Positions 13,990-42,245 of a stretch of DNA of 42,245 bases are shown in pieces (the first letter of the stretch is position 1; each line of letters opens with the position of its first letter). A model generated the notes under the pieces. The model had not been told where the DNA came from. It saw only the letters and a list, made by a program, of their open reading frames with translations, and made no database searches. Made by a program: the position numbers and the translations under genes. Location of the stretch: positions 1 to 42,245 of the forward strand of contig DAOORA010000004.1 of assembly GCA_035389045.1 (NCBI GenBank). The letters are read 5' to 3'. This DNA comes from Bacteroidales bacterium (GTDB lineage: Bacteria > Bacteroidota > Bacteroidia > Bacteroidales > CAIWKO01).

Positions 13990-14004
13990 AAATGAAAAAT
14001 ATTC

Positions 14005-15243
14005 TTATCTGGAGGTGACCGGTGGAACAATTGTATCTGAGGTTTGAAAAAAAGGCTGCAGGGCCCGTGTAAAGATTCCGTTCATATAAGCTATTGCCAT
14101 TCCGTAATTTGTTATGGAAACCGCATTTTCCGTGAATGGTTTCAAACGGTTGAGTATTTGTTTGCGGGTCACCATGCAGCCTCCGCATTGAATAACCAAT
14201 TTGTAATCCCGGACATTTTCCGGCAACATATCCAATCCGGATATATTTGTAAAATATAATTTTTTTCCTGTGAATTTTGAAAGCCACATAGGTATTTTAA
14301 CCCTTCCGATATCATCACAGCTCACATGATGGGTGCAGGACTCAAGAATAAGTATTCTGTCGCCGTCTTTGAGTTCACTGATCGTTTGGGTTCCTTTCAC
14401 AAAATTTTCAAAATCTCCTTTCAGCCGTGATAACACAATGCTGAAACTGGTAAGCTGAATATCTGCGGGCACTAATTCCTTTACGGTGCCGAATACCTGG
14501 CTGTCGGTGACAACCAGACAAGGTTTGATGCTGCAGGTTTCAAAAAAATGTTTCAACTCTGTTTCTTTAAGAACCACGCAGATACAATCATTGTCAAGCA
14601 CGTCGCGGATGGCCATCTGCTGAGGCAGGATCATTCGTCCTTCGGGAGCTTCCGAATCTATTGGGGTTACCAACAATACGTAATCGCCTTTACGGATGAT
14701 GTCGCCGATCAGCGAATGAGCAGCGTAGGCTGATGCTGGAATTGTATTTTTCAATGCTGATATCACCAAACCGATATTTGAGGATGACCGGACACTAAGG
14801 TCAATAATATCACAAATACAATACTTTTGAATAATTTCCCGTGTATTTTCGGATAACGGATTTACATCGGACTTGTTGTGAACAATGATGAACGGCACAT
14901 CATACTGAATAAATTCATTGACTAACTGCATCTCGGGTTGCCCGAATTTATTATCAGCAATAACAAGCACAGCGCAGTCGATGATTTTCATAACCTGCAG
15001 GGTTCGATCAATCCTTTTTTTGCCTAACTCACCGGTGTCGTCAATACCGGCAGTATCAACCATTATCACGGGACCTATGCCGGATAGTTCAATAGATTTT
15101 TTCACAGGGTCGGTGGTTGTTCCTGCATGTTCCGAAACAATAGCCACCTCCTGCCCTACGAGGGCATTTATGAGTGAACTTTTCCCGTTATTTCGTCTTC
15201 CAAAGATACCGATGTGTGGTTTTAAGTCCCTGCCCTTATCCAT
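14005..15243 (-). CDS. hydF: [FeFe]-hydrogenase H-cluster maturation GTPase HydF
   Basis: GRRNNGKSS, GTTTDPV, DTAG, NKSD, APEGRMILPQ, ESCTHH...CGGCM, TNYG. Confidence 0.95.
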   Translation of the reverse strand: MDKGRDLKPHIGIFGRRNNGKSSLINALVGQEVAIVSEHAGTTTDPVKKSIELSGIGPVIMVDTAGIDDTGELGKKRIDRTLQVMKIIDCAVLVIADNKFGQPEMQLVNEFIQYDVPFIIVHNKSDVNPLSENTREIIQKYCICDIIDLSVRSSSNIGLVISALKNTIPASAYAAHSLIGDIIRKGDYVLLVTPIDSEAPEGRMILPQQMAIRDVLDNDCICVVLKETELKHFFETCSIKPCLVVTDSQVFGTVKELVPADIQLTSFSIVLSRLKGDFENFVKGTQTISELKDGDRILILESCTHHVSCDDIGRVKIPMWLSKFTGKKLYFTNISGLDMLPENVRDYKLVIQCGGCMVTRKQILNRLKPFTENAVSITNYGMAIAYMNGIFTRALQPFFQTSDTIVPPVTSR

Positions 15244-15291
15244 GTTTGCTGAATTAAATTATGATCACTTCAAACAATATTCCTGATGATA

Positions 15292-16719
15292 TTAAAAATA
15301 CAAATCCCGTTTTCCGTCTTTAATCTGGTTGATCCTGTTTCTGATCTCAGCCACATTTTTTGCATCGCTGAGGGCTTCCAGTTCTTTTTCAATAAGATTC
15401 CATCCCTTGTCGGCATTCACCTTATTGCCATAATCCACGAGATATTCAGCCAGGGTAAGTATGGCATTCGGTGTACAGAAGCGTTTTATGAAACCGGGAA
15501 CGGAAAATTCCATAAAATGTTCACCGGTTCTGCCGAGTCTGTAACATGCTGTACAAAAGGAAGGGAGCATCTCCTGATCCAGAAGTTCAGAGATGATCTC
15601 GCTCAGCGACCGGTTATCGTTGATCCTGAACTGGCCTTTATTAAGATCCTGCTCAGATAGAGATGTTTTGGCATAACTGCCCAGTTCGAGCCGTGTACCG
15701 CCGTCGATTTGGGAAACTCCGAATTGTATCACTTCATTGCGTAACGCCACAGGCTCCCGGGCGGTTAGGATCATGCCCGTATAAGGCACGGCCAAACGGA
15801 GAATGGCAATCATCTTTGCAAAATTCTCATCATTGACAAAGTATTTATTGCCCATACTGAGCATGGACGCATCTTTGATCCGTGGAAATGAAATAGTATG
15901 AGGCCCGACATTATAACATGCTTCCAGATGGTTGGTATGCCTGACTAACCCCAGCACTTCGAAACGCCAGTCGTATAATCCGAAAAGCGCCCCTATGCCC
16001 ACATCGTCGAGCCCTGCCTCCAGGGCACGGTCGAGGGAAGAAAGGCGGTATCCGTAATCAGCTTTTTTTCCCCTGAGATGGTAAGTTTTATAGGCTTCGG
16101 GGTGATACGTTTCCTGAAACACCTGGAACGTGCCGATACCGGCATTTTTTACGGTTCTGAACCCTTCTATGTCCAGAGGCGCTGCATTTATATTCACACG
16201 CCTGATCTCGCCATTGTTTTTTTTAACAGAATAGGCCAGGCGGACGGTATGTGCAATAAATTCCGGATTATACTGGGCATGCTCTCCATAAACCAGGATA
16301 AGCCTTTTCTGGCCGTTATCTTCCAGCGCTTCGATTTCTTTAACGATCTCATCATCGGTGAGGGTTACCCGCTTTGCCTCGGGATTTGATGCTCTGAAAC
16401 CGCAGTAAAGGCAATTATTGGAGCATTTGTTGCCTATATACAGGGGTGCAAACAAAACAATGCGGTTGCCATAAATCAGTTTTTTCAACTGACGTGCACC
16501 CTCTTTTATTTCTTCGACAAGTTCAGGATCGGTAGTATTGACTAATATTGCTGTATCAGCAAGACTCAGCCGTTTTTTAGAAAGCGATTTTGCAATGACC
16601 GACCTGACAGATTCTCTGGTTGACACCGTATTGTTAAGATATTCCTCAATCTCCGCTGCATCAATAAATGGCTGCATCGGAACATCAGGTATGTTGTATT
16701 TTTCAGGCGTAAATTTCAT
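15292..16719 (-). CDS. hydG: [FeFe]-hydrogenase H-cluster radical SAM maturase HydG
   Basis: GNRIVLFAPLYIGNKCSNNCLYC, GEIRRVNIN, GPHTISFPR, PSFCTACYR...FCTPNA. Confidence 0.96.
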   Translation of the reverse strand: MKFTPEKYNIPDVPMQPFIDAAEIEEYLNNTVSTRESVRSVIAKSLSKKRLSLADTAILVNTTDPELVEEIKEGARQLKKLIYGNRIVLFAPLYIGNKCSNNCLYCGFRASNPEAKRVTLTDDEIVKEIEALEDNGQKRLILVYGEHAQYNPEFIAHTVRLAYSVKKNNGEIRRVNINAAPLDIEGFRTVKNAGIGTFQVFQETYHPEAYKTYHLRGKKADYGYRLSSLDRALEAGLDDVGIGALFGLYDWRFEVLGLVRHTNHLEACYNVGPHTISFPRIKDASMLSMGNKYFVNDENFAKMIAILRLAVPYTGMILTAREPVALRNEVIQFGVSQIDGGTRLELGSYAKTSLSEQDLNKGQFRINDNRSLSEIISELLDQEMLPSFCTACYRLGRTGEHFMEFSVPGFIKRFCTPNAILTLAEYLVDYGNKVNADKGWNLIEKELEALSDAKNVAEIRNRINQIKDGKRDLYF

Positions 16720-18288: not shown

Positions 18289-20283
18289 TTATAAGGTTTT
18301 ATTTTTGTTTCTTGGTATTCTGATTTTAAAACAGGTACCGGTTGGGCCTGTTTCGGGCTTATCATTTGTTTCGATGTTTATTTGTCCGTTGTGCATTTTT
18401 ACAATGCCATAAATCAGCGGCAATCCGAGGCCTGTTCCTTTGCCTATTGGTTTGGTGGTAAAGAAAGGAGTAAAGATTTTATCCAGATTTTCTTTGGATA
18501 TTCCCGGCCCTGTATCGGCCACCCAAAACTCAATATCATCATTGCTTTCCCGCAAAGTAATACTAATTTTTCCGCCGTCGGGCATGGCCTCAATGGCATT
18601 TTTTTCGAGATTGGTCAACACCTGCATCCACTGATCGTTATCTATGAAAGCATACGTATTGGACAATTCACATTTAACTTCCACTTCGACATTGGACGGC
18701 AAAATGACGGATTCTATGGAATGATTGGTAAACTTCAGGATATCTGTTTCCACCAGTTTAACCTGGTTCTTACGCGCAAAATTCAACAAACCGCCAACAA
18801 TTTTTTTGCATCGTTCGGCCTGTTCGGCAATCAGTTCCAGGTCGTCGCGTATAGGGCTTTCGGCAGGAGCTTCTTCTTTCAGAATATTGCTGTACATAGT
18901 GATAATTCCCAGCGGATTGTTCAATTCATGAGCGATACCTGCAGACAACTGGCCCATATTGGCGAGTTTTTCGGATTGTTGCAGCGATTGACGTGCGCTT
19001 GCCAGATTTTCGTTCGAGAGATTGAGTTCCTGTATCGAATTGTGAAGTTTTTCAATGGTATTGGGCAGGCACATTTCCACCTCGGCAAAACCTTCGATGA
19101 TTGCAATGGCATGTTCAATGCACGAATCGTAACCGCAGGCTCCGCAGTTGAGGTGATCTTCGGCTTTTACTTTCCCCATGCTTTCCAGAACCTTCGAGAT
19201 GGCTTCCACGGAGGGCGTTGGAATACGCCGGTCGGCCGGTTTAAACTGTTGGGAATAATCAAGGTCCTTAAACGTGTTAAACTCATTTTTCCAGGTATCC
19301 TTATCCAGTAATTTCATCTTTTGTCGCACATAGTTTCTAATCCTGGTGGTTTTGGTGAACAACATATTATTATAGGTCATTCCCGGCCCCATGATGCATC
19401 CCTCACAGCACAGCAGTTCGAGGTGCTGCGATTTTTTAAGGCCTTCTTCAAATTCATGGATTGCCTCCCTGAAATGCACTCTCCCGGAGGCCACAATAAT
19501 ATTTTCCTCGCAAATATCATCCGTTTTATTGATAGAATGCAGTTTGCCCCGGGTGACAGGAAATATTGATGCTTTTCCGGCATAAGGCGGGTCAAAATCA
19601 GATGGTTCAGTGTTTTCTGGAGTAATGCCTGCTTTTTTAAACAGTTTTCGCAACTCGATAAAGGTTATCACCTGATCTACCTCGTTTGATTCTGCTTTTT
19701 TGGCAATACAAGGTCCCATAAAAACAGTCTTAACATCCTCACCATATTTTTTCTTTACGATCCTTACCATAGCCACCATCGGTGAAACGATCGGGGCTAA
19801 GGATTCTATCAGTTCGGGATGATAATGCCTGACATAATAGGCTATGGCCGGGCAGTCGGATGAAATGCTTTTGGGGGCATCCACATCATTCATTACCTTT
19901 TGGTATTCATTGGCCACCATATCGGCACCAAATCCTACTTCCACCACCCAGCTAAAACCTAATTTACGGAGCATGCCAACAAATTTCCTGTAATCGCAAA
20001 TCTCAGCAAATTCGGCCGGAAAACTCGGAGCAACGCAGGCTACAGTTTTTTCATTCGTGGCCAGGTATTCTTCAACAGGTGCTGTGGTATCCACAAACAC
20101 TTTTGCTTTCTGGCTGCAAACTTTAGTGCAGTTTCCGCATCCGATGCATCTCTCCGAGATAACCTCCGCCTGGCCGTTTATTATTTTTATAGCTTTTACA
20201 GGACATTCTCTGACACAGGTATAACATACCCTGCAGCGGTCTTTTACTGTGTAAACTAACTCGTTATTTATCAGATTTCCCAT
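18289..20283 (-). CDS. Putative sensory [FeFe]-hydrogenase (group C) fused to a histidine kinase
   Basis: 2x[4Fe-4S] (CRVCYTC...CP; CIGCGNC...C); variant H-cluster motifs [27 protein letters not shown]; FeS domain [10 protein letters not shown]...C; H-box [27 protein letters not shown]. Confidence 0.9.
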
Positions 20284-20314: not shown

Positions 20315-22039
20315 TTATAAAAGCACTTCGCGTTTGAAATATTTAGTATGCAGAAGTGTATGGCTTTTGTGCTGAAGTGGTTCGCCCAGGAAATTAGCAT
20401 ACAATTCAACAATTTCAGGATTTTTATGCGAAACCTTCAGTGTTTCCTTGTCATCAATTTCATAGAGTGCGTTCATACGTGCTTCAATAACTTTTTCAGT
20501 TATTCCGATACGTTGACCGCCACCGGCAATACATCCTCCCGGGCATGTCATAACTTCAATAAAATGAAGATCATTTCTTCCGTTACGGATTTCTTCTATC
20601 AGTTTGCCTGCATTGGCAAGGCCACTGACAACGGCGACTCCGATTTCCATATCATTGATCTTTATACGTGCCTCTTTATGTCCTTCAAGTCCTCGAACAG
20701 CATTTATTTTAAAGTTCGTCAGTTCATTTCCCGTAAGTTGTTTATAAGCCGTTCGTAAGGCTGCTTCCATTACACCGCCTGTAGCGCCGAAAATTTTTCC
20801 TGCCGAGCTGCGAACGCCCAGTGGGGAATCGGTCAGTTCAGGTTCAATGTTATGCATATCAATGCCATGGAGTTTTATCAGCTCAATGAGTTCGCGGGTA
20901 GTCAACACCATGTCTACATCGTTAATGCCCTCACGGCCCATGGTATCCCGTTGTGCTTCAAATTTCTTGGCGGTACAGGGCATAATAGATACGGAAAAGA
21001 TGTCTTTGGGTTCCAATTTGGCCTGCTGTGCAAAATAACTCTTAATTATGGCACCGGTCATCTGCTGCGGCGATTTGCAACTCGAAAGGTTATCAAGATA
21101 ATCGGGAGCAAACTCTTCGGCATATTTTACCCATGCGGGGCAACAGCTGGTAAACATGGGCATGGTTTTACCCTTTACGATACGATCAATAAGTTCTGCC
21201 GATTCTTCCATAATGGTTAAGTCGGCTCCGAAGGTGGTATCAAACACGTAAGTAAATCCTATCTTGCGCAGGGCAGCATTAAGGATTCCATTAATATCCT
21301 GCCCCGGTTTCATGCCAAACTCTTCAGCCAGGGAAACAGAGATAGACGGGGCATACTGCACCACGGCAACTTTGTCCTTATTGTGTAAAACATCCTGAAT
21401 TTCAGCGGTTTGGTTTCTTTCCGACAAGGCGCCGGTAGGGCAAACCATGATACACTGTCCGCAATTGACACAACTGGAAGTATTGAGGCCTTTGCCCATT
21501 GAAGTACCTATGAGTGTTTTGCTGCCACGGTTGATGTATTCAATGCACGACACGCCCATTACTTCTTCGCACACTCTGACGCATCGTCCGCAGAGGATAC
21601 ACTTTGCCGGGTCACGGATAATACTCAGGCTGGAATGATCCATTTTATGTTTGTTTTTTATGCCATGGATACGGCGGTCAACCACGTGATATTCTTTTGA
21701 AAGCTGCTGCAGCTCGCAATTTGCGTTTCTCACGCAGTAGAGGCAATCGTCGGGATGATTTGACAGCAGCAGCTCGACAATAGTTTTTCGTGCATCTAAT
21801 ACGCGGGGCGAATGCGTGTTGATTTTCATTCCGTCGCTGACAGGAAAAGAACAAGAACTCACGAGTTTGGCACTGCCTTCGAGTTCCACCACGCACATCC
21901 GGCAGGCGCCCGAGGGGATGAAGTTTTTCATATGACAAAGTGTAGGCACTTTGATACCGTTGCGGTTAAGCACTGTCAGAATCGTTTCGCCTTTTTCTGC
22001 CTGATATTTTTTTCCGTTGATTTCTATAGTCAAATTCAT
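20315..22039 (-). CDS. hydA: [FeFe]-hydrogenase catalytic subunit, group A multimeric type
   Basis: Canonical TSCCPAW, MPCTAKKFE, EVMTCPGGCIAGGGQ; N-terminal [2Fe-2S], HxxxCxxCx5C and 2x[4Fe-4S]. Confidence 0.96.
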   Translation of the reverse strand: MNLTIEINGKKYQAEKGETILTVLNRNGIKVPTLCHMKNFIPSGACRMCVVELEGSAKLVSSCSFPVSDGMKINTHSPRVLDARKTIVELLLSNHPDDCLYCVRNANCELQQLSKEYHVVDRRIHGIKNKHKMDHSSLSIIRDPAKCILCGRCVRVCEEVMGVSCIEYINRGSKTLIGTSMGKGLNTSSCVNCGQCIMVCPTGALSERNQTAEIQDVLHNKDKVAVVQYAPSISVSLAEEFGMKPGQDINGILNAALRKIGFTYVFDTTFGADLTIMEESAELIDRIVKGKTMPMFTSCCPAWVKYAEEFAPDYLDNLSSCKSPQQMTGAIIKSYFAQQAKLEPKDIFSVSIMPCTAKKFEAQRDTMGREGINDVDMVLTTRELIELIKLHGIDMHNIEPELTDSPLGVRSSAGKIFGATGGVMEAALRTAYKQLTGNELTNFKINAVRGLEGHKEARIKINDMEIGVAVVSGLANAGKLIEEIRNGRNDLHFIEVMTCPGGCIAGGGQRIGITEKVIEARMNALYEIDDKETLKVSHKNPEIVELYANFLGEPLQHKSHTLLHTKYFKREVLL

Positions 22040-22052
22040 AATATTCTAATTT

Positions 22053-23972
22053 TTAAATCATTTCAATAGCATCAAATTTGCATGTTTCGTAGCAAGCGCC
22101 GCAACCGATACATTTATCTTCCTGGATAAAATGCGGAGCTTTTCGGGATCCGATAATGGCCGAAGTGGGGCATTTTTTGGAGCAGGCCGTACAACCGGTA
22201 CATTTATCAACAATGATATGAAATTTTCTCAGGTCGGTACATTTTCCTGCCGGGCATACCCTCTCAAACACATGAGCTTCATATTCATGGCGGAAATAAC
22301 GCAGTGTGCTTAACACGGGATTGGGAGCAGATTGTCCGAGGCCGCAAAGCGATGTTTCTTTAATGACTTTTGCGAGTTTTTCCAATTGCATGACACCCTG
22401 AAACCTTTCGAGGGCATCTTTGTCGTCGTTGGATTTTGGTTTCGAGGTAATACTCTGTAATATTTCGAGCATACGCTTAGTACCTTCGCGACAGGGTATA
22501 CATTTACCGCAGCTTTCGCGCTGAATGAAATCCATAAAGAATTTCGCAATATCAACCATACAGGTTTCTTCGTCCATCACCACCAATCCTCCGGAACCCA
22601 TCATGGCTCCAACGGACAGCAGGTTTTGATAGTCAATTTCAATGTCAAGATTTTCTTCGGTAATACATCCACCCGAAGGACCGCCGATTTGTACCGCCTT
22701 GAATTTTTTGTCGAAAGCGATGCCGCCGGCAATATCAAAAATTATCTGGCGAACCGTTGTTCCCATGGGAATTTCAACAAGACCGGTATTTTTAACATTT
22801 CCTGACAGGGCAAATACTTTGGTTCCTTTGCTCTTGTCGGTGCCCGTGGAGCTAAACCAGTCAGCGCCCCTGAGAATGATTTCGGAGATGTTGGCATACG
22901 TTTCCACATTATTAATTACACTGGGTTTGCCAAACAAGCCGCTTTCGGCCGGAAATGGAGGACGAGGGCTGGGCATTCCGCGAAATCCTTCGATGCTGTG
23001 CATCAGGGCAGTTTCTTCGCCGCACACGAAAGCTCCGGCTCCCATTTTGATTTTTATTTTCAGGTCGTATCCGGTATTCAAAATATTATGACCGAGCAGA
23101 CCATATTCTTCTGCTTGTTTGATAGCGATCTTCAGGCGCTGGATAGCGAGCGGGTATTCGGCACGGATATAGATATAGGCCACAGTGGCGCCTACGGCAT
23201 ACGATCCGATGGCCAGACCTTCGAGGAGCCGGTGGGGGTCGCCTTCGATGACAGCGCGATCCATAAAAGCGCCGGGGTCGCCTTCGTCGGCATTACAAAT
23301 CATGTATTTCTGGTCGGCCTGAGTTTTGAAAGCCAATCTCCATTTGGTTCCTGTAGGGAATCCGCCGCCGCCACGTCCGCGCAAGCCGCTTTTTTCAATA
23401 GCAGAAATTACGTCTTCGGGCGACAGGGTTTTCACGGCTTTGATAAAGCCGGCATAGCCGCCCCTGGAGATATATTCTTCAAAACTCACGGGATTAATAA
23501 CGCCACAGTTCTTAAGAACTAAACGTTTTTGTTTGACAAAAAACGGGTGCTGGTTGATATCATTAACACCCTGCCACGGTTTTAGTTCATCGCTCATAAA
23601 CTGTCCGAGAACATTTTCTGTCATCGTTTTTCCGGCGATAACGGTGTTGAGAATATCATTGACTTTATCAAAGGTCACTTTTCCGAAAGATATCCTGTTC
23701 CTGCCCGGCAGCCTGACATCCATAATGGGTTCAACGGCACAGAATCCTATGCAGCCAACTTCTACTATATCGGCTTCCATAGTATTGAATTTCAGATATT
23801 CTTCGATGGCCGCTTTAGTCTTTGCCGCACCAGCGCCAAGTCCGCAGGTTCCTGCACCTATAAAAATGGAAGTTTTGTCGTGACCTGCATTTCTTTCAAA
23901 TGCACCGTTATTTAAGTCAGTTTCTATGCCGGCAGCGAGGTTCTCCAGGTAATGTTTTACTGAATTGTTCAT
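22053..23972 (-). CDS. hydB: NuoF-like diaphorase subunit HydB of the hydrogenase
   Basis: N-terminal thioredoxin-like [2Fe-2S], SGLRGRGGGGFPTG, NADEGDPGAFMDR, GAGAFVCGEETAL, GGPSGG, ESCGKCIPCREG, C-terminal 2x[4Fe-4S]. Confidence 0.95.
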   Translation of the reverse strand: MNNSVKHYLENLAAGIETDLNNGAFERNAGHDKTSIFIGAGTCGLGAGAAKTKAAIEEYLKFNTMEADIVEVGCIGFCAVEPIMDVRLPGRNRISFGKVTFDKVNDILNTVIAGKTMTENVLGQFMSDELKPWQGVNDINQHPFFVKQKRLVLKNCGVINPVSFEEYISRGGYAGFIKAVKTLSPEDVISAIEKSGLRGRGGGGFPTGTKWRLAFKTQADQKYMICNADEGDPGAFMDRAVIEGDPHRLLEGLAIGSYAVGATVAYIYIRAEYPLAIQRLKIAIKQAEEYGLLGHNILNTGYDLKIKIKMGAGAFVCGEETALMHSIEGFRGMPSPRPPFPAESGLFGKPSVINNVETYANISEIILRGADWFSSTGTDKSKGTKVFALSGNVKNTGLVEIPMGTTVRQIIFDIAGGIAFDKKFKAVQIGGPSGGCITEENLDIEIDYQNLLSVGAMMGSGGLVVMDEETCMVDIAKFFMDFIQRESCGKCIPCREGTKRMLEILQSITSKPKSNDDKDALERFQGVMQLEKLAKVIKETSLCGLGQSAPNPVLSTLRYFRHEYEAHVFERVCPAGKCTDLRKFHIIVDKCTGCTACSKKCPTSAIIGSRKAPHFIQEDKCIGCGACYETCKFDAIEMI

Positions 23973-24439
23973 ATCGTTTGTTCTTTAGCTATAAATGATT
24001 CAACTATTTCCTTTAATTTTTCAGTGGTGACCTTAGCAAAAAACTCTCCGTTGATGTTTATCACCGGGGCAAGACCGCACGCACCGATACATGCCACGAC
24101 CTCAATGCTGAAAAGTCCATCACGGGAGGTTTGTCCGGCTTTAATTTTCAAAATAGATTCCAGTTCCTGCAGTACGGTGGCCGATCCGAGCACATGACAG
24201 GCTGTACCCCGGCATACCATGATATGGTATTTTCCGATGGGTTCAAACCTGAATTGATTATAAAATGTAGCAACACCGTAGATTTTGCTGGTAGGTATCT
24301 TCAACTTCAGTCCGGTTTTAACAATTGCTACTTCGGATAAATAACCTTCATGTTCCTGGATTTCCTGTAAAAGCGGGATCAAAGAGTCCCTGCCGCAGTT
24401 TTCGTAGTTTTCAAGTATTTTATCAATTGCTTTTTCCAT
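23969..24439 (-). CDS. hydC: NuoE-like [2Fe-2S] subunit HydC
   Basis: GVATFYNQF, VCRGTACH, ACIGACGLAP; stop overlaps the hydB start (ATGA). Confidence 0.95.
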   Translation of the reverse strand: MEKAIDKILENYENCGRDSLIPLLQEIQEHEGYLSEVAIVKTGLKLKIPTSKIYGVATFYNQFRFEPIGKYHIMVCRGTACHVLGSATVLQELESILKIKAGQTSRDGLFSIEVVACIGACGLAPVININGEFFAKVTTEKLKEIVESFIAKEQTI

Positions 24440-30996: not shown

Positions 30997-32037
30997 TTAT
31001 CTCTCAACCATCAGATATTTTTCTTGTTTCGGATTTACATTGCCGATAAGAGTTGTATTTTTAAAACCTGATTTTTTAAAGGCTGAAACCACAGCAGATG
31101 TTTTTTCTTCAGGACAGGAAATCAACAAACCTCCTGATGTTTGCGCATCCATCAACAGCATTTTAAATTCATAAGGCAAGTTGGCAGCAAATACAATATC
31201 CTGCTCCACAAAGTCAAGGTTGCGAAAACAGGCTCCGGGTATACATCCCATTTGTAACAAACGGAGCGCACCGTCGAAAACAGGTACATTTCGTGCGTTA
31301 ATCTTTAAAGTTACTTTGCTGCCCATCGCCATTTTTAAAGCATGCCCGGCAAGTCCGAAACCTGTAACATCGGTCGCACACTTAATATGATGTTCCTGCA
31401 TAATCGCTGCTCCGGCCTTGTTAAGCTGTTTCATGCTTTGAATTACGCTATGGTATTCATTTTCAGTAGTTTCGCTGATTTTTTTTCCTGCAAGCACCGT
31501 ACCGCCACCTAAGGGTTTAGTGAGAATCAGCACATCACCCGGACAGGCAGCAGCATTAGTAATGATTTTTCCTGGATGAACAATGCCGGTAACCGCCAGC
31601 CCATATTTGGGAACATCGTCAACAATGGTATGCCCTCCGACTATCACTCCTCCGGCTTCTTTCACCTTATCAATACCTCCGCGCAAAATCTCTTTTAAAA
31701 TTTCCAAAGGAACTTTTGCCGGGAAAGCAACTATGTTAAGCGCTGTTATTACCTCTCCGCCCATGGCATACACATCGCTGAGGGCGTTGGCAGCCGCTAT
31801 TTGCCCAAATTCATAAGCATCAGAACAGAGAGGAGGAAAAAAATCAGTAGTTTGTATAAGAGCCATTTCATCACTTATTTGATACACCCCGGCATCGTCA
31901 TGGGTTTCAATGTCTATCAGCAGATTTTTATGTTTTATCTTTGGCAATCCGGTTAAGGCTTTGCTTAATTCCCCTGCAGCAAGTTTTGCAGAACACCCGC
32001 CATATTCTACCGTGGATAAAAGGTCAAATTTAGCCAT
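30997..32037 (-). CDS. selD: Selenide, water dikinase (selenophosphate synthetase), Cys form
   Basis: GGCSAK (TGT codon), DDAGVY, QTTDFF, AANALSDVYAMGG, GGHT, TDVTGFGLAGH, DAQTSGGLL. Confidence 0.96.
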   Translation of the reverse strand: MAKFDLLSTVEYGGCSAKLAAGELSKALTGLPKIKHKNLLIDIETHDDAGVYQISDEMALIQTTDFFPPLCSDAYEFGQIAAANALSDVYAMGGEVITALNIVAFPAKVPLEILKEILRGGIDKVKEAGGVIVGGHTIVDDVPKYGLAVTGIVHPGKIITNAAACPGDVLILTKPLGGGTVLAGKKISETTENEYHSVIQSMKQLNKAGAAIMQEHHIKCATDVTGFGLAGHALKMAMGSKVTLKINARNVPVFDGALRLLQMGCIPGACFRNLDFVEQDIVFAANLPYEFKMLLMDAQTSGGLLISCPEEKTSAVVSAFKKSGFKNTTLIGNVNPKQEKYLMVER

Positions 32038-32291: not shown

Positions 32292-32900
32292 TCATGGATA
32301 AATGACACTGCCCGCCATGCTTAGACGGTTAAGAATATCGTACATATTTGAAACCATGCCTACACCTACTTCATCTTTTTTCTTATAAAAATCAAGGCAG
32401 GTACCGCAAACAAGAATCTCAACACCGTCACTTTCAAGTTTTTTGAGACTATCAAGTACAACAGCATCTTTTAACGTCAGAAAAATACCCGAATTAAGGA
32501 ATAGTAGTTTTGACGGCTTGTTTTCGATTTCAGGCAAGGTATTTATAAATGCCTTAAGCAGAATTTTACCAAGTTCGGGGTCTCCATCACCAAGAAAATT
32601 TCGTTGAAAAGCAATTACATAATCAGAAGTTCCCGCGGTTGAGATTTCGCAATAATCCTCAGATTTTGAATATTTTGAAAATTCTCCAGTTTTATTTACA
32701 AACAGATGAAACACACCCGCCAATGTTTGAATGATTGTTTTCATTCCGTTGTCTTCCAAAAAACGGGTAACATTCTTCAGGGAGGTTTCATTATCAATCA
32801 GGATTTCCAGCGTTTCATCAACGGCAATTTCTTCTAAAGCTTTTTTAGCCATTATCAATGGCATGGGACATTGCTTTCCTTTAGCATCGATTGTTTTCAT
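32292..32900 (-). CDS. yedF: Sulfurtransferase-like selenium metabolism protein YedF (TusA + DsrE domains)
   Basis: IDAKGKQCPMPLIMAKKAL; LGDGDPELGKILLKAF; LNSG; VCGTCLDFY; SNMYDI. Confidence 0.9.
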   Translation of the reverse strand: MKTIDAKGKQCPMPLIMAKKALEEIAVDETLEILIDNETSLKNVTRFLEDNGMKTIIQTLAGVFHLFVNKTGEFSKYSKSEDYCEISTAGTSDYVIAFQRNFLGDGDPELGKILLKAFINTLPEIENKPSKLLFLNSGIFLTLKDAVVLDSLKKLESDGVEILVCGTCLDFYKKKDEVGVGMVSNMYDILNRLSMAGSVIYP

Positions 32901-34045
32901 ATATTACCTGTTATTTTCTTAAATGCCCTTATTGTATATGTAATTTCTTCTTCGGTATTGAAACAGCCCAGACTCAGTCTCAGTGTTCCCTGCGGAAAAG
33001 TCCCCAGCGACTTATGTGCCAAAGGGGAGCAATGCAGGCCTGCACGTGCCAAAATACCATAATCCCGGTCAAGCATCAATGCGAGTTCGCTGGATAGCAA
33101 ACCATCAACATTTAATGACACCAGAGGCAATCTGTTATCACCAGAATCTGGTCCATACAGGGTGATATGATCTATTTCTTTCAGTTGGCTAAGAAAATAC
33201 GACATCAGTTGATTAAGATGCTCACGTATAATGTCAGTCCCCTTCTCCTTCAGGTATTCCAATCCGGCTTTTAAGCCAACAATACCAACTGTATTAATGG
33301 TTCCTGCTTCCAGGCGGTCGGGATAGAAGCCGGGGTGAAATTCCTCATCAGATTTGCTGCCGGTTCCGCCATGGATAAGCGTATCAATGGACAGATCGCT
33401 ATTGATGCATAAACCGCCAATACCCGGAGGCCCATATAATTTCTTATGCCCAGTGAAAATAAGAATATCAATATTGTCTTTTTGCATGTCAACAGGAATG
33501 AAACCGGAAGTCTGAGCTGCATCCGTCATAAAAATGATTTGCTTCTCATTGCATAGTTTCCCTATGTGGCTAACAGGCATTACAGCCCCGCATACATTTG
33601 AGCCATGGATGCATACTACAAGCTTTGTATTCGGTTTTATGCTTTCTGTAAATTTCTGCAGACTGAAATACGCTGTTTCGTCAGCTGGTATAACAGTAAT
33701 TTCAATCATTCCAAGGCTTTCAAGGTATCGCAACGGCCGGATAACAGAATTATGTTCAAAATTACTCACGATAACATGGTCGCCTTTTTTCAACAGGCCT
33801 TTGATGGCTATGTTGATGGCATGAGTAGCATTTGCCGTAAATATTACCTTTTCAGAATTCCTCACATTAAAAAAAGACGCCAATAATTCTCTGGTTTCAA
33901 AAACCTGCCGTGCAGCCTGTAACGACATGCTGTGCCCCGACCGTCCGGGACTTGCGCCATAATCATCAAGATAAGCTGTGATAGCCTTAGCTACCGTCGG
34001 CGGTTTGGGCCACGAAGTGGCCGAATTATCAAGGTAAACTTTCAT
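32897..34045 (-). CDS. Cysteine desulfurase / selenocysteine lyase family (class V PLP enzyme)
   Basis: YLDNSATSWPKP, EHNS, DAAQT, FTGHK, EAGT, RAGLHCSP. Confidence 0.92.
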   Translation of the reverse strand: MKVYLDNSATSWPKPPTVAKAITAYLDDYGASPGRSGHSMSLQAARQVFETRELLASFFNVRNSEKVIFTANATHAINIAIKGLLKKGDHVIVSNFEHNSVIRPLRYLESLGMIEITVIPADETAYFSLQKFTESIKPNTKLVVCIHGSNVCGAVMPVSHIGKLCNEKQIIFMTDAAQTSGFIPVDMQKDNIDILIFTGHKKLYGPPGIGGLCINSDLSIDTLIHGGTGSKSDEEFHPGFYPDRLEAGTINTVGIVGLKAGLEYLKEKGTDIIREHLNQLMSYFLSQLKEIDHITLYGPDSGDNRLPLVSLNVDGLLSSELALMLDRDYGILARAGLHCSPLAHKSLGTFPQGTLRLSLGCFNTEEEITYTIRAFKKITGNI

Positions 34046-36011
34046 GCAATAATTTTTTCCCGTTTTGAGTAATCATGATTCTGGTTTCAACATCAGCGCC
34101 ACGTTGCACGGCAATGATTTTTTCCGCTTCGTAAATATCTGCCAGCAAAGCCCTGAATCGTTTCGTCCCTCCGATAATTTCCTTAAATTCTTCTATCTCA
34201 AGACCTGTTTCCTTGGTCGAAAGTTCCTTCAGAAGCTGTAAGCGAAAGTGATCAAGAACCGAAGTATGAATAAAATCATTCTGAAAAAAACGCACCTTAC
34301 CTTCGCTTACCAGGTTACTGAGATACATTTTAATTTTTTGCTTTGTGATATTTTTTGATGCTGCAAGCTCTTCTATTTCAGATAACACAGGCTTTCCGGT
34401 ATCATACCTGAGTATTTCATTTTCAAGCCATTGGATTTCCTCTCTTGTCTGTTTATCCATTACAGCTTTATGCCCCGCTATTATCCACGTGTTTCGGAAA
34501 GCATCAATAAGCTTTTCCGATTTCATTTTAGCAAGCAGAAAATCGAGGTAGGGCTTGCCAGCCTTTATTTTTGATAAACCCAGTTTGCCGATTACCTCAT
34601 TTGTTTCGAGCCCATGATGAAATATGGGAAATTTGTTATGATATTCCTGTAGAATTTTAACAACTTTGTTTTTTAAAACCTTTTCATAATTGAAGTTTAT
34701 CAATATATCACCTTCGGCAGATCTGTAAATACAGAATCCGGATGATACGATATCTTTATCATCAGGCATATCATCTGTTTTCAGGTGAAGTTTTTCGACG
34801 ATCTCACTTACAGTATGTGGCCTGAATTCTTTTTTCAGTTCGGTATTGATGATTTCCACGATACTGTTTTCGCTGCTTGATCCGGCAGCCAGCTGTGTTA
34901 AAGTCTCAATAAGTTCGGTAGTTCTTTTTTTATGGTGCAGCGGGTTGCTGTCAATAACAAATCCGCCACCCAGGGTAATCTCTCCCGAAGAATTCCGGAT
35001 AATAAACCTGTCTTTGTTCAACAACACAGCATCCTTAGAAAGATGCATCTGCACGATGGCTTCGTCACCGCCCTCACATATATCTTTGTTTAACAAATGA
35101 ACTCTGGCTGTGCACTCAAAAGTTCCGGAAATAAAAATCACGTTCGACCATAAATTCAGTGAAATATCATCATTAAAAAGAGAAATTTTGGCATCCACCA
35201 TGGAAGTTGTCCTGAGCTGTTTTTCCGAAATCAGCATTCCGCGTTCAAAATCTTCATTTTTCAGTCCGATTAAATTAATAGCAGCCCTGTCTCCTGCAAC
35301 AACTTTTTCGACAGGCACACCATGTCTTTCCATTGACCGTATTCTTAATTTTTTGTTTTCGCCCGGCAGTAAAAAAACATCTTTCCCTGTTTCGATACTC
35401 CCCCCTGATACGGAGCCTGTCACCACATTTCCAAAACCTTTTATTGTAAATATCCTGTCGATATACATTCTGAAAATGCCATCGGGTTCTTCAGGTTCTA
35501 TCAGTGAAACTACATTTTCTATCGCTTGAATCAATTCAGGTTTTCCTTTTCCTGTCACACAAGAAATCCCGACCACCGGAGATCCTTTCAGCGAAGTATT
35601 TTCCAGATAATCGGAAATTTCATACCTGGCCATTTCTATCAGTTCATCATCCACTAAATCTGTTTTGGTAAGAGCCACTACCCCTTTGTTAATGCCCAGG
35701 GCGGTAACAATATTGATATGTTCGACTGTCTGGGGCATGATACCGCTATCGGCAGCAATAACAAGTAAAACCAAGTCGATACCACATGCACCGCCCACCA
35801 TAGTGTTAATAAAATCTTTATGGCCCGGCACATCAATGATTCCCAGTGACTCTCCGCCAGGCAGATTCAGCGCCGAAAATCCAAGATTGATAGTAATACC
35901 TCTTCTTTTCTCTTCTTCATGAGTGTCGCAGTCAACATCAGTCAGGACTTTAATAAGAGAAGTTTTCCCATGATCAATATGTCCGGCTGTTCCCATTATC
36001 AGGTGTTTCAT
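34029..36011 (-). CDS. selB: Selenocysteine-specific elongation factor
   Basis: GTAGHIDHGKT, RGITINLGF, DVPGH, IDRIF...GFGNVVTG, GDRAAIN, TLGGG, long C-terminal extension; follows selA. Confidence 0.93.
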   Translation of the reverse strand: MKHLIMGTAGHIDHGKTSLIKVLTDVDCDTHEEEKRRGITINLGFSALNLPGGESLGIIDVPGHKDFINTMVGGACGIDLVLLVIAADSGIMPQTVEHINIVTALGINKGVVALTKTDLVDDELIEMARYEISDYLENTSLKGSPVVGISCVTGKGKPELIQAIENVVSLIEPEEPDGIFRMYIDRIFTIKGFGNVVTGSVSGGSIETGKDVFLLPGENKKLRIRSMERHGVPVEKVVAGDRAAINLIGLKNEDFERGMLISEKQLRTTSMVDAKISLFNDDISLNLWSNVIFISGTFECTARVHLLNKDICEGGDEAIVQMHLSKDAVLLNKDRFIIRNSSGEITLGGGFVIDSNPLHHKKRTTELIETLTQLAAGSSSENSIVEIINTELKKEFRPHTVSEIVEKLHLKTDDMPDDKDIVSSGFCIYRSAEGDILINFNYEKVLKNKVVKILQEYHNKFPIFHHGLETNEVIGKLGLSKIKAGKPYLDFLLAKMKSEKLIDAFRNTWIIAGHKAVMDKQTREEIQWLENEILRYDTGKPVLSEIEELAASKNITKQKIKMYLSNLVSEGKVRFFQNDFIHTSVLDHFRLQLLKELSTKETGLEIEEFKEIIGGTKRFRALLADIYEAEKIIAVQRGADVETRIMITQNGKKLLHESLP

Positions 36012-36022
36012 CTCGCTGCTGT

Positions 36023-37444
36023 TTAGTTTATATTCAACAAAACATTTTTGTGGGTTTCGGAAATAATTCCGGCAACCGTTTCCATTTCATTACTTTCCAG
36101 TGTCAGCACATCAAATAAAACAGCTCCCTGTTTGAGAATTCCCAGCACAGGTAATGGTTGTTGCAACAGTCCGCTGTACATTTTTTCGGCATATTCGGAC
36201 CGTATTTTGTTTGCAGCCTTTAGTTTTATCTTTACTGCATAACTTTCAATGACTGTATCAGGCATGGTTCCCCCGCCGCATTGTCCGAAAGAAGATACGA
36301 TCTCTGTATCCACTCCTTTGTCATTAAGTATTTTTTGAAAAGTTTTTGCTTTGTTTTTCAGTTCACTTTTCGGTGTACTCAACATTCTGAAAACCATATT
36401 TTTTTCTTTCAGCAGCTTCTCATTAAGATAATAAGTGCAAGCTGTTTCAAGAAATGCCGTAGTAGCTTTACACACCCGGAGCGCCCGCATCATGGGTTCT
36501 TTTTTTAATATGTCTGTGAATATTTTTTTCCCGGCGATCATTCCGGCCTGCGGGCCTCCTAAGAGTTTGTCACCACTGAAACAAACCAGGTCAACACCTT
36601 TCTCAAGCGAACTTCTTACATCGGGTTCATTTTCAAATGCCGGAATATCCATTTTTCTGAGCAAACCAGAGCCAAGGTCATAAACTACAGGTATATGGTA
36701 CTGTTTCCCTATGTTAACCAGTTCCGGCAGTTCCACTTCCTGAGTGAATCCTTTAATCACATAATTGGATTTATGGGCTTTAAAAAGAACGGAAGTATTT
36801 TCATTGATTGCTTTAATATAATCCTGAGCTCTGGTATTATTGGTAGTTCCTACTTCCACCATTTGGCAATCAGCAGCAGCCATGATCTCAGGTATTCTGA
36901 AAGAACCTCCGATTTCAATCAGCTCCCCTCTGGATATGATGACCTCCCTACCCCTGGCAAAAGTTCTGAGAATAAGCATTACGGCGGCTGCATTATTATT
37001 TACTATTAAAACATCCTCTGCTCCGGTAAGAAACTTCAATAATTCGGCGGCGTGCTCATCGCGGTGACCCCTGGCGCCTTGCTGCAGGTCAAATTCGAGG
37101 TTGCTATAACCTTTCAGTATCTCTGAGGAATCTGCCAGCAGATGCTCTCCGAAGGGGGCACGCCCTATGTTGGTATGAATTATCACACCGGTGGCATTGA
37201 TCACTTTTTTCAGGCTTCTTCCTGCGAACATCTTTGATAAGCTCATTATCTTATCGCTGATCTCGGTCGTAGTAGGCGGGGAATTTCCCTGTTTGATTTT
37301 TTCTCTGTAAAAAGATAATGCCTGCCTGATCGAAAAGGTAATTACTTCTTTCCCATATTCGCAAATACAGGAACGAACTTCCGGCAGCGCCAGAAGCGTA
37401 TTAACAGCTGGAAGGCGTTTGAATGCCTCCGGGTTTGAATTCAT
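36023..37444 (-). CDS. selA: L-seryl-tRNA(Sec) selenium transferase
   Basis: VINATGVIIHTNIGRAP, NLEFDL, VNNNAAA, ISRGELIEIGGSFRIP, EVGTTN, DLGSG, FSGDKLLGGPQAG. Confidence 0.97.
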   Translation of the reverse strand: MNSNPEAFKRLPAVNTLLALPEVRSCICEYGKEVITFSIRQALSFYREKIKQGNSPPTTTEISDKIMSLSKMFAGRSLKKVINATGVIIHTNIGRAPFGEHLLADSSEILKGYSNLEFDLQQGARGHRDEHAAELLKFLTGAEDVLIVNNNAAAVMLILRTFARGREVIISRGELIEIGGSFRIPEIMAAADCQMVEVGTTNNTRAQDYIKAINENTSVLFKAHKSNYVIKGFTQEVELPELVNIGKQYHIPVVYDLGSGLLRKMDIPAFENEPDVRSSLEKGVDLVCFSGDKLLGGPQAGMIAGKKIFTDILKKEPMMRALRVCKATTAFLETACTYYLNEKLLKEKNMVFRMLSTPKSELKNKAKTFQKILNDKGVDTEIVSSFGQCGGGTMPDTVIESYAVKIKLKAANKIRSEYAEKMYSGLLQQPLPVLGILKQGAVLFDVLTLESNEMETVAGIISETHKNVLLNIN

Positions 37445-37479
37445 GATTTGTTATAAAAATATTTCATGACACCATGTTG

Positions 37480-37571
37480 CAGAGAGGGCAGGAATCGAAC
37501 CTGCCACAGCCGATTTTATACGTCTGCTACCGGTTTTGAAGACCGGCCGAAACACCAGATTCTTCCTCTCT
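37480..37571 (-). tRNA. selC: tRNA-Sec (anticodon UCA)
   Basis: Hand fold: AGAGAGG/CCTCTCT acceptor; GAATC-TGGT-GTTTC D arm; GCCGGT-CTTCAAA-ACCGGT anticodon arm; long variable arm; GCAGG-TTCGATT-CCTGC T arm; G discriminator; CCA not encoded. Lies directly upstream of selA, with a TAATTTTG box at 37610-37617. Confidence 0.95.
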
Positions 37572-37671
37572 TTTTGTTAACAGTTCAACTAACTGATTTG
37601 ATTACACCGCAAAATTAAATTAATATTTTAAACCAAAAGTAGTTTTGTGCTGAAACTTTGATAATGAAACT

Positions 37672-39043: not shown

Positions 39044-41758
39044 ATGGAAAACAAATTAACAATCACAATTGACGGGAAAGCATATACTTCTTCTCCCGGG
39101 CAGACGGTTTTGGATGTTGCCCGTGAAAACGGTATCTACATCCCTACCCTGTGCTATCATGCACGCACAGGCAAAGCCGGAAAATGCAGGGCATGCCTGG
39201 TTGAAATTGAAGGATTGCCAGTGCTGAAAGAAAGCTGTGGTCTGGAAGTCAGAGACGGTATGGGAATAAAAACAAATACCGAAAGAATTCTTGAGGTCAG
39301 AAAAATGATTGTGGAATTGCATTTATCAAATTGCAAGCACAATTGTTATGCCTGCGAGTCAAACGGTCACTGCGAACTTCAGGATATGGCCTATCATTGT
39401 GGCATCGAAGAACCTCATTTTCCGGTGGATGTTCCCTCCATTCCCCTTGATGAATCATCCGAAGGCATAATCCGAGATGCCAATAAATGCATACAATGCG
39501 GCAGATGCATCAAAGCGTGTAATAGTAATGTGATGAACGAGGTTCTTGACTTCGGCTGGCGTTCCGGAAATACCAGGGTTATCTGCGACGATGACAAGCC
39601 CATGGGCGAATCAAGCTGCGTACAATGCGGTGAATGTGTGCAGGTTTGTCCGGTGGGTGCACTGACCTTTAAGAATGCCAAAGGCAAAGGTCCTTTCTGG
39701 ACACTGGAAAAGAAAAAAACAATATGTACTTACTGCGGAGTTGGTTGCTCCATAGATATGTATGTAAAAGATAACAAATGGGTATTCTCACACGGCACCG
39801 AAGACAACTGGGAAAAACAGGTGAACAAAGGGATGCTTTGCGTAAAAGGACGTTTCGGGCTTGACTTTCTCAACCGTGAAGAACGTTTGAAAACGCCTCT
39901 TATCAGGAAGAACGGCCAACTTGAAGAAGCCTCATGGGAAGAAGCCCTTGATCTGGTGGCTTCCAAATTTTCCTCTATTAAAAAAGAACACGGACCCGGC
40001 GCAATAGGTTTTTTCTCTTCCGCACGGGCTTCCAATGAAGAAAATTATGCATTTATGAAATTCGCGAGGGCAGTGGTGGGCACCAACAGTGTCGACCACT
40101 GTGCACGACTGTGACACAGCTCTACGGTTGCGGGACTGGCAGCCACGTTAGGTTCAGGAGCAATGACAAACAGCCTGCAGGAAGCAGAAAAATCTGATGT
40201 CATCTTACTGACAGGTACAAACACCACCTGGAACCATCCGGTTTTTGGCGGAATGGTTAAAAGAGCTAAAAAAATAAAAGGCATAAAACTGATTGTGTTC
40301 GACCCCAGGGAAACAGACCTGGCAAAATGTGCCGATATCCATCTTAAACAAAGACCCGGCTCTGATGTCGCCTATCTGATGGGAATGCAACATATCATCA
40401 TCAAAAATAACTGGCACAACCAGGAGTTCATTAACGAACGTTGCGAAGGATGGGATGAGTATGTTAAGAGCCTTGAATTCTTTACACCTGAAAAAGTGGA
40501 AGAACTCAGCGATATTCCCAAAGAACAACTGTATGAAGCGGCCAAAATGTATGCTACTTCAGGAAGAGGAGCCTTATACTATGCCATGGGTATCACACAG
40601 CACACCCACGGAGTTGACAATGTAAAAGCCTGCTCAAATCTGCAGATGATACTGGGCAACTTTGGACTTGAAGGTACAGGCGTGAATCCTTTACGCGGCC
40701 AAAACAATGTGCAGGGAGCATGCGACATGGGCTGTTTGCCAAATGTATTCACGGGATATCAGCCGGTCATCAACGAAGATGCCCGTAAGAAATTTGCCGA
40801 AGCCTGGGGCGTAAAATCGGAAGACCTCGACGATAAGGTAGGACAAACGGTAACCACTATGGTAAACAATGCCGGAGATTCTATCAAAGCTTTGTACATC
40901 ATGGGTGAAAACCCTCTGGTTTCGGATCCTAACCTGCACCATGCCAAAGAACAATTCGCAAAACTTGACTTCATGGTTGTGCAGGATATTTTTCTTACCG
41001 AAACAGCCCAAATAGCTGATGTGGTATTACCTGCCTGTGCTTTTGCCGAAAAAACAGGAACTTTTTCGAACACAGAACGCCGTGTTCAACTGGGCAGAAA
41101 GGCATTGAACCCTCCACAGGGAGCAAAACTCGACTCCGAAATCATTGCCGCAATAGCTAAAAAAATGGGCTATGAAAATTTTGCATCCTCAGCCGAAGAA
41201 CTCTTTGAGGAAATGAGACAACTTACCCCCTCCTACAAAGGAATGACTTATGATCGACTCGAAAAAGAATGCGGACTAAGATGGCCTTGCCCTACGGAAG
41301 AACATCCGGGCACCCCCATACTTCACATCGGAAAATTTTCACGCGGAAAAGGATTGCTGGTGCCCATGGAATACAGGCCTCCTGCAGAAGAAACCAGTCC
41401 GGAATATCCTATAATTCTCACCACCGGACGTCTGCTGCAACATTATCATACCGGCTCTATGACCCGAAGGTCAAAAGTTTTGAACAACCTGAAACCTTAT
41501 GCCGAAGTTGAAATTAATGTTACAGACGCCGAAAAATTAAAGATTGAAAATGGTGAAGTAGTAAAAGTATCATCAAAAAGAGGCTCTATTGAAGTTAAAG
41601 CTAAAGTAACGACAAAGATCTCTGAAGGAATCGTATTTATTCCTTTCCACTTTGCTGAATCTGCTGCAAATCAACTAACTAACGACGCCTTGGATCCTAT
41701 TGCAAAAATACCGGAATACAAAGTATGTGCCGTAAAAGTTGAAAAAATTGCGAAGTAA
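39044..41758 (+). CDS. fdhF: Selenocysteine-containing formate dehydrogenase alpha subunit (904 aa; UGA 40112-40114 read as Sec)
   Basis: Two track ORFs are in frame and joined by [35 protein letters not shown]...LCVKGRFG, PLRGQNNVQGACDMG, TGRLLQHYHTGSMTRR, PEYKVCAV. Confidence 0.95.
40126..40144 (+). promoter_or_regulatory. Bacterial SECIS element
   Basis: GGTTGC-GGGACTG-GCAGCC hairpin starts 11 nt after the UGA, the same spacing and 5' arm as the E. coli fdhF SECIS. Confidence 0.85.
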
Positions 41759-41795
41759 TGTTGATATTAAATTGAAGTAATGTTGATATTAAATT
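41752..41795 (+). repeat. Perfect 22-bp tandem duplication
   Basis: GAAGTAATGTTGATATTAAATT twice, spanning the fdhF stop codon. Confidence 0.95.
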
Positions 41796-41803
41796 ATTTT
41801 ACC

Positions 41804-42245
41804 ATGAAAGAAGACATAAAAAATAAAATAGAGCAGCTGATGGCCAAATATCCCAAAAAGGAATCTGCCTTATTGCCTGCATTAAGATTGGTACAAAAAG
41901 CACATGATAATAATCTTACTCATGAACTCGTAAACGAAGTGGCTGACGTCATTGGCGTTTCACATTCGAGAGCTTACGGAGTGGCCACCTATTACTCGAT
42001 GTTCAACATCGACCACGTGGTAGGAAAATACCATCTGCAGGTTGACACCAACATCCCTGCTACCTTGATGGGAGCTGTTAAAATTTACAATTATCTCAGC
42101 ACCAAACTCGGTATCAGTCATGGACAAACCACTGCCGACGGTTTGTTTACCTTAAGCCATGTGGAATGTCTGGCCTCGTGCGGAACCTGCCCTGTAATAC
42201 AGGTAAATGATAAGTATTACGAAATGATGACCTTTGAAAAGGTGG
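41804..42245 (+). CDS. NuoE-like subunit of the formate dehydrogenase complex (3' end cut off by the window edge)
   Basis: Open frame MKEDIKNKIEQLMAKYPKKESALLPAL...GVATYYSMF...GQTTADGLFTL...ECLASCGTCPVIQVND; missing from the ORF track because it has no stop codon. Confidence 0.9.
   Translation, partial: MKEDIKNKIEQLMAKYPKKESALLPALRLVQKAHDNNLTHELVNEVADVIGVSHSRAYGVATYYSMFNIDHVVGKYHLQVDTNIPATLMGAVKIYNYLSTKLGISHGQTTADGLFTLSHVECLASCGTCPVIQVNDKYYEMMTFEKV

Follow-up and report, generated by a model that had tools for sequence, protein, structure and literature searches.

A selenocysteine tRNA with a 12-bp (7/5) acceptor and T arm at the head of a Bacteroidales selenocysteine operon

Results

The window, by which we mean the whole analyzed stretch of 42,245 nt from a Bacteroidales genome, carries on its minus strand a run of selenocysteine (Sec) genes in the order selC-selA-selB-sclA-yedF-selD. 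The gene at the head, selC (37480..37571), encodes tRNA-Sec(UCA) and extends over 92 nt from A1 (37571) to the discriminator G73 (37480); it was identified with ARAGORN and Rfam model RF01852. The selA gene (36023..37444) begins 35 nt past G73 and encodes an L-seryl-tRNA(Sec) selenium transferase of 473 aa (TIGR00474, 521 bits), which matched the structures of the SelA proteins from Aquifex aeolicus (E 1e-98) and Escherichia coli (E 6e-92). It is followed by selB (34029..36011) for the Sec-specific elongation factor of 660 aa (TIGR00475, 306 bits; Pfam GTP_EFTU and Beta-barrel_SelB), by a cysteine desulfurase/selenocysteine lyase-like gene (32897..34045; TIGR01977, 463 bits) that reached 369 bits with the SclA model NF040779, short of the cut-off of 525, by a gene for a yedF-like selenium metabolism protein (32292..32900; TIGR03527, 202 bits), and by selD for selenophosphate synthetase (30997..32037; TIGR00476, 371 bits).

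Thirty-eight nucleotides upstream of A1, on the same strand, lies the promoter-like box TAATTTTG (37610..37617). It matches TAnnTTTG, the consensus of the Bacteroidota -7 promoter box. Such a box occurs within 100 nt upstream of selC at 13 of 25 homologous loci, all of them from Bacteroidota; among the same 25 loci, it was absent from the three Cloacimonadota rows, the Fibrobacterota row, and a row titled Chromatiales (L110). The position of the box upstream of selC therefore suggests that selC begins the operon transcript. At five of the 13 loci, the box is only 5-14 nt away from A1, and transcription may start there at or adjacent to the mature 5' end of the tRNA.

On the plus strand, a gene for the alpha subunit of formate dehydrogenase (fdhA, 39044..41758) contains one in-frame TGA (40112-40114), which corresponds to residue 357 in the context CARLUHSS. 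The protein is likely a client selenoprotein of the Sec system encoded in the window. The gene annotates as two open reading frames unless the TGA is read as Sec (U357). A SECIS element was sought at this TGA, and the hairpin 3' of it folded no better than shuffled sequences (z 0.05). The next gene, at 41780-42244, encodes a NuoE-like 2Fe-2S thioredoxin-like protein, a neighbor that suggests an NAD-linked formate dehydrogenase complex. The rest of the window encodes proteins with sorting domains for type-9 secretion as well as an [FeFe]-hydrogenase cluster and its maturases, a gene content that fits an anaerobic member of the Bacteroidota. One gene (18289-20283, minus strand) combines an [FeFe]-hydrogenase large-subunit domain with HisKA and HATPase_c domains, as in a hydrogenase-like sensor kinase; its neighbors are response-regulator genes on one side and a HydABC-like hydrogenase (20315-24439) on the other. 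The maturase-like genes occupy 12907-16719, with HydF domains at 14005-15243 and two adjoining radical-SAM proteins.

ARAGORN called the tRNA gene itself, on the minus strand and at exactly the coordinates of the original prediction, as tRNA-SeC with the anticodon UCA. The covariance model RF01852 gave 57.3 bits (gathering score 47, E 3.8e-9), and this was the only tRNA-Sec match above the cut-off in the entire genome, a draft of 4.46 Mb in 135 contigs. The gene has the UCA anticodon, G73, the long variable arm, and the 6-bp anticodon stem of the RF01852 family, and it also has the corresponding gene context, with selA, selB, selD, and a UGA-containing selenoprotein gene. What it lacks is the 13-bp (8/5) acceptor and T arm. 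G73 is followed by C-A-A, so that CCA is not encoded. We conclude that the window encodes a genuine tRNASec with an acceptor arm one base pair short of the bacterial norm.

The acceptor stem is formed by AGAGAGG (positions 1-7, 37565..37571) and CCTCTCT (37481..37487), and the T arm (37488..37504) consists of a 5-bp stem, GCAGG (37504-37500) with CCTGC (37492-37488), and the loop TTCGATT. Both the ARAGORN drawing and our own parse of the sequence thus bore out the predicted count of seven plus five, that is, 12 bp. The acceptor stem starts with A1-U72, as had been noted, and it cannot be extended outward because A37572 would face G37480 in an A·G non-pair; inward, A37564 is opposite C37488, which is already a base of the T stem. 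In the ARAGORN drawing, G37480 is unpaired. A T stem of 6 bp, in which the G before GCAGG pairs with C66, was considered and rejected; it competes with pair 7:66 and leaves the total at 12 pairs.

A single nucleotide, A8 (37564), links the acceptor stem to the D arm in our layout table, and this A is invariant in the homologues. The D arm (37548..37563; AGAATC, loop TGGT, GTTTCG) has five pairing positions, G-C, A-U, A-U, U·U, and C-G, around a 4-nt UGGU loop. These five positions with the U·U mismatch, also part of the original prediction, are seen in the ARAGORN drawing. Alternatively, the D stem can be drawn with six positions, of which the outermost is an A·G closing non-pair, again with A37564 as the single-nucleotide linker. 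When measured against a 6-bp D stem with a 4-nt loop, the loop is thus present, while the stem has A·G at the outer position and one inner U·U. Only six of the 25 homologues have a standard pair at this outer position. The anticodon arm (37529..37547) has a 6-bp stem and the loop CTTCAAA with the anticodon TCA at 37539-37537. It is followed by a long variable arm of 24 nt (37505..37528) with a stem of up to eight positions; one of these is a conserved A·G, and this genus has a U·U at another. The U·U mismatches of the genus, in the D stem (37558-37562/37549-37553) and in the variable stem (37513/37520, minus strand), are replaced by A-U and G-C pairs in relatives; that of the D stem also occurs in a separate lineage (L122). 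When the single sequence was folded by energy minimization, 12 stacked pairs with a free G73 were obtained (z -2.74; 1 of 200 shuffles was as good).

Homologous tRNASec genes were collected from the relatives of the window genome, from the flanks of the best 80 SelA loci (one genome per species), and from the genomes of those SelA loci that had no adjacent selC. A true tRNASec was found in 5 of 40 relatives of the window genome, the remaining matches being tRNA-Ser, tRNA-Leu, and tRNA-Tyr. The search yielded 25 distinct sequences that align without gaps over the 92 nt from A1 to G73 and share 79-100% identity with the window tRNA. The window and a pair of copies from a single genome (L126 and L127) are among the 20 rows from Bacteroidales/Lentimicrobium; of the rest, three are from Cloacimonadota, one is from Fibrobacterota, and one is L110. 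Two further sequences from another Bacteroidota class bring the 7/5 layout to 27 distinct sequences in 26 genomes. The original prediction had called for a look at close homologues for an extra base pair, as expected for an assembly error; none was found, and all 27 sequences have the same length and layout. A second genome of the genus (L013/L038) has a tRNA body identical over all 92 nt. The two copies L126 and L127, from genome G047, have identical 7/5 bodies on two short contigs with different flanks, CCA following one of them and CTA the other.

Imposed on the 25-row alignment, the 7/5 cloverleaf had 92.5% of its 800 cells paired, and changes on both sides were observed at 13 of the 32 pairs. 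The covariation that the original prediction had proposed to look for includes the acceptor stem, which was paired in 96.6% of its cells and had both-side changes at three of seven pairs (5:68, 6:67, and 7:66); these double changes are G-C or A-U swaps in L122 and L012, with G·U intermediates also present. The variable-arm stem had both-side changes at five of eight pairs, while the T stem is invariant in the 25-row alignment; L136 has U-A for C-G at its second pair. None of 500 shuffles matched the observed percentage of paired cells, the numbers of pairs and cells with both-side changes, or the covariation score, and 25 of 500 reached the observed number of further pair types; relatedness is not corrected for in this shuffle control but is in the control with slid registers, in which only 36-48% of the cells were paired. 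When RNAalifold was applied to the 25 homologues with no structure supplied, it returned the same cloverleaf and no -1:73 pair. Position 1:72 is mismatched in the three Cloacimonadota genes L119-L121 (A·A in two, A·G in one) despite an encoded GCCA, and L110 has A·C there. The open acceptor top of these lineages resembles that of an initiator tRNA.

The identity of the discriminator was derived from the bases around the 3' end (37479..37480), with the homologue alignment and the tRNA genes of the window genome as the two sources. G73 is followed by C74 in all 25 homologues, and the complete GCCA is encoded in 11 of them. Likewise, C74 (37479 in the window gene) is encoded in all 40 tRNA genes of the window genome, only 10 of which have the full CCA. 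Since the G is always followed by C, and C74 is encoded genome-wide, this G-C represents positions 73-74, and the G is not position 72. Thus, G73 is the discriminator. In the same 40 tRNA genes, position -1 is occupied by T (19 genes), A (12), C (6), or G (3).

To place the enzymes, we calculated a FastTree phylogeny of 84 SelA sequences (80 of 81, after one partial sequence had been dropped, plus four more), the root of which is arbitrary. All 24 SelA proteins from loci or genomes of the 7/5 type formed a single clade with a support of 1.0, and the SelA proteins of two Bacteroidota genomes with an 8/5 tRNASec fell outside it. In the tree, the 7/5 tRNA type thus tracks one SelA clade (24/24). 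The window SelA shares one clade with Cloacimonadota SelA (support 0.96); its closest relatives come from Bacteroidales metagenome-assembled genomes, and the nearest ones outside the Bacteroidota from Cloacimonadota and Fibrobacterota.

The alignment of SelA and SelB from 12-bp and other systems, another suggestion of the original prediction, did reveal clade-specific differences, but all of them stem from one evolutionary split. At position 447 of the window SelA, L is found in 21 of the 24 clade members and F, H, or M in one each, whereas all 60 other sequences, of which only 17 are of known tRNA type, have R. L447 aligns with R432 of A. aeolicus SelA, for which no role was found in the accessible parts of the literature. 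Compared with the same 60 sequences, the SelA clade lacks 1-2 residues in a loop of the N-terminal domain (following window residue 55) and two residues near position 375, and most of its members carry an insertion at 410-415 (77-100% by column). In the first 420 residues of SelB, eight positions are conserved differently between 19 clade members and 49 others, and the clade has single-residue deletions after residues 264, 282, and 397. As these contrasts derive from a single split, they are leads and not evidence of adaptation; an adaptation of SelA and SelB to the short arm is only suggested.

The 7/5 module was found in 26 genomes of three phyla: in Bacteroidales, Lentimicrobium, a second Bacteroidota class, Fibrobacterota, and Cloacimonadota. 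Of 400 other Bacteroidota genomes sampled, a single one (G278) had SelA, so that the use of Sec is rare among the Bacteroidota genomes searched. That genome belongs to another class and has a classical tRNASec, with eight residues before GCCA. It was encountered again, as G656 with an identical contig, coordinates, and score, in a sample of the class of L110 (G450); the L110 record, titled uncultured Chromatiales bacterium, is therefore grouped inside the Bacteroidota. Among 401 genomes of this class, five encode SelA; three of them carry a 7/5 tRNA (G450, G750, and G791) and two an 8/5 tRNA (G278, identical to G656, and G830). A class-wide RNA search around the L110 genome, in this Sec-poor class and with 26 candidates scored per genome, gave no match in 150 other genomes at E<=1e-9. 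No tRNASec was found in G042, an incomplete genome of 1.4 Mb with a SelA of the clade; the genome of L051 was left out of the tRNASec search.

Discussion

According to the textbook view, a 13-bp acceptor and T arm is the signature by which SelA and SelB separate tRNASec from ordinary tRNAs. The gene described here most probably (with a probability of about 0.9) represents the functional selC of an anaerobic Bacteroidales member, encoding a 12-bp, 7/5 tRNASec with a one-nucleotide linker that would be charged, converted, and delivered by the established bacterial route, with tRNA, SelA, and SelB forming one inherited module. The original prediction of a non-canonical Sec system in the Bacteroidota is thereby supported, given the complete set of Sec genes and a layout that is conserved in relatives. 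Some points count against this reading. The D stem of the window tRNA is weak, with a U·U and an A·G closing position, and the variable stem also contains a U·U. Moreover, Baron and Bock reportedly found in 1991 that the 8-bp stem is the determinant that distinguishes SelB from EF-Tu in E. coli.

A rival explanation would be that the true fold is 8/5, namely that RNase P leaves the nucleotide before A1 on the tRNA and that this nucleotide forms a pair with G73, which would restore the 13-bp arm. There are precedents for such an arrangement: tRNAHis has a G-1:C73 pair, and Burkard and Soll are said to have attributed the eighth pair of E. coli tRNASec to an unusual RNase P cleavage in 1988. In 21 of the 25 homologues, the base at -1 is indeed a U or C that could pair with G73 (13 U·G and 8 C-G). 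However, it is A in the window, which does not pair with G, and A or G, likewise unable to pair, in three other homologues; furthermore, G73 never covaries with -1. A pyrimidine at this position is also a general feature, as it precedes 25 of the 40 ordinary tRNA genes of the window genome, where -1:73 would be pairable in 22, and it is present in 13 of 15 canonical 8/5 tRNASec genes located next to more distant SelA genes. In those 15 genes, G73 is certainly free, because GCCA comes after eight paired positions. Finally, pairing of G73 would deprive seryl-tRNA synthetase (SerRS) of a free discriminator. We therefore regard the 8/5 fold as very improbable for the window tRNA.

An error of assembly or sequencing could also account for the missing base pair, since the genome is a metagenome-derived draft of 135 contigs. 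Among the contigs of two DNA and two RNA runs, out of 14 public runs, none spans the tRNA; it is touched only by 48-nt pieces that derive from relatives and carry four differences, and one RNA-library contig (37151-37449) covers the 5' part of selA and ends before the tRNA. The identical 92-nt body in the genome of the same genus excludes an assembly error, and the same length and layout recur in 27 distinct sequences from 26 genomes, so that the probability of this explanation is close to nil. Another candidate is a tRNASec look-alike, namely an allo-tRNA, a tRNACys of the selC* type, a tRNA that suppresses UGA, or a pseudogene in decay. In favor of it, EF-Tu prefers a 12-bp arm, as described in PMC5389517 and PMC10778597, and the D stem of the window copy carries a U·U mismatch. 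Against this, the selC* tRNACys has U73 and the allo-tRNAs are 8/4 or 9/3 according to PMC5389517, while the window tRNA combines 7/5 with G73. The gene lies 35 nt upstream of selA-selB in a genome with an intact selD and a TGA-containing fdhA, its sequence is conserved with compensatory changes, the D-stem U·U recurs in the second lineage L122, and no other Rfam tRNA-Sec match above the cut-off exists in the genome. A look-alike thus has a very small chance of being the correct explanation.

For the functional 7/5 tRNASec, the following working model, built on the established bacterial pathway, can be proposed. SerRS would charge the tRNA with serine via G73 and the long variable arm; a preference of this enzyme for 12-bp arms is described in PMC7609411. 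The adjacent SelA would then convert the serine to Sec with selenophosphate provided by SelD. Recognition by SelA would presumably rely chiefly on the D arm with its long stem and 4-nt loop, and SelA reads the D arm through its N-terminal domain, as stated in PMC11047290. The adjacent SelB would deliver Sec-tRNASec to UGA codons, for example that of the neighboring formate dehydrogenase gene. The acceptor pair and one linker nucleotide are lost together, and this may keep the D arm correctly positioned relative to the shorter acceptor arm. The tRNA, SelA, and SelB form a single, jointly inherited module.

A further-reaching reading holds that this is a co-adapted 12-bp Sec module, separate from the classical one, in which the loss of the SelA arginine, the small SelA insertions and deletions in a loop of the N-terminal domain and in the C-terminal domain, and the fixed changes in domains I-III of SelB would be adjustments on the protein side to an arm shortened by one pair. 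Such a module would extend across the Fibrobacterota-Chlorobiota-Bacteroidota group and the Cloacimonadota and would coexist with 8/5 modules inside one Bacteroidota class. We consider this reading tentative and rather doubtful. If true, the enzymes would be ready-made parts for Sec insertion with tRNAs of ordinary shape. Natural 12-bp systems show that the 13-bp rule is rewritable, and the SelA employed for the production of selenoproteins with EF-Tu-compatible tRNAs comes from them. The classical 8/5 systems in close relatives offer a natural contrast for locating the protein residues that read the arm length. Annotation tools that assume 13 bp would misplace G73 in these genomes.

Canonical 8/5 tRNASec, as represented by E. 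coli, A. aeolicus, and RF01852, shares with the window tRNA the UCA anticodon, G73, the 6-bp anticodon stem, the long variable arm, the 4-nt D loop, a long D stem (in the window tRNA with A·G and U·U at two of six positions), and, as presumed for the window tRNA, the use together with SelA and SelB. The difference is that the window tRNA has one acceptor pair and one linker nucleotide fewer (a linker of 1 versus 2), and consequently 12 instead of 13 stacked pairs. It also starts with A1-U72, whereas all 17 canonical 8/5 tRNASec genes that we examined have G-C. Deviations from 8/5 had been reported earlier in Epsilonproteobacteria (PMC5330540). The premise of the original prediction that rare 12-bp tRNASec lineages exist is confirmed in section 10 of the same article (Santesmasses et al. 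2017), which summarizes the "Cloacimonetes-type" 7/5 tRNASec of Mukai et al. 2016. It also describes 47 further 7/5 candidates from Gamma- and Alphaproteobacteria, Clostridiales, Spirochaetes, Rubrobacter, and Dehalogenimonas, most of them with a bulged acceptor nucleotide. Like the window tRNA, these other 7/5 tRNASec species detected with Secmarker have a 12-bp acceptor and T arm, G73, and a selC gene near selA and selB (PMC5330540); unlike most of them, the window tRNA has no acceptor bulge. The assumption that 12-bp systems are valued for Sec engineering proved correct as well: the SelA of Aeromonas salmonicida accepts a 12-bp branch and serves this purpose in combination with allo-tRNAs (PMC10778597). 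As a natural SelA for a 12-bp branch, this system resembles that of the window, but it belongs to an unrelated lineage.

The closest match is the Cloacimonetes type, which, as summarized in PMC5330540, has the same 7-bp acceptor stem, 5-bp T stem, and G73, an acceptor-D linker shortened by one nucleotide, and no acceptor bulge. The three Cloacimonadota genes L119-L121 align with the window tRNA without gaps at 79-82% identity. In contrast to the A·A or A·G at 1:72 of these genes, the window tRNA has a paired A1-U72, and its host belongs to the Bacteroidales. The window genus also departs from the Cloacimonetes type by having a U·U mismatch in both the D stem and the variable stem. The passage on 7/5 tRNASec in PMC5330540 does not name Bacteroidetes, although Mukai et al. 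2016 may already list them, and among the papers listed by a literature search, none concerned tRNASec structure in Bacteroidetes by title or abstract. New here are the host group, Bacteroidota, a well-sampled lineage, the short tRNA that travels with a distinct lineage of SelA and SelB, the absence from this SelA clade of an arginine common to the 60 other SelA proteins, and the clear contrast with 8/5 relatives. On account of the matching layout, the lack of a bulge, and the homology to the Cloacimonadota genes, the window tRNA is, by sequence comparison, a member of the already described Cloacimonetes-type 7/5 class and not a new kind.
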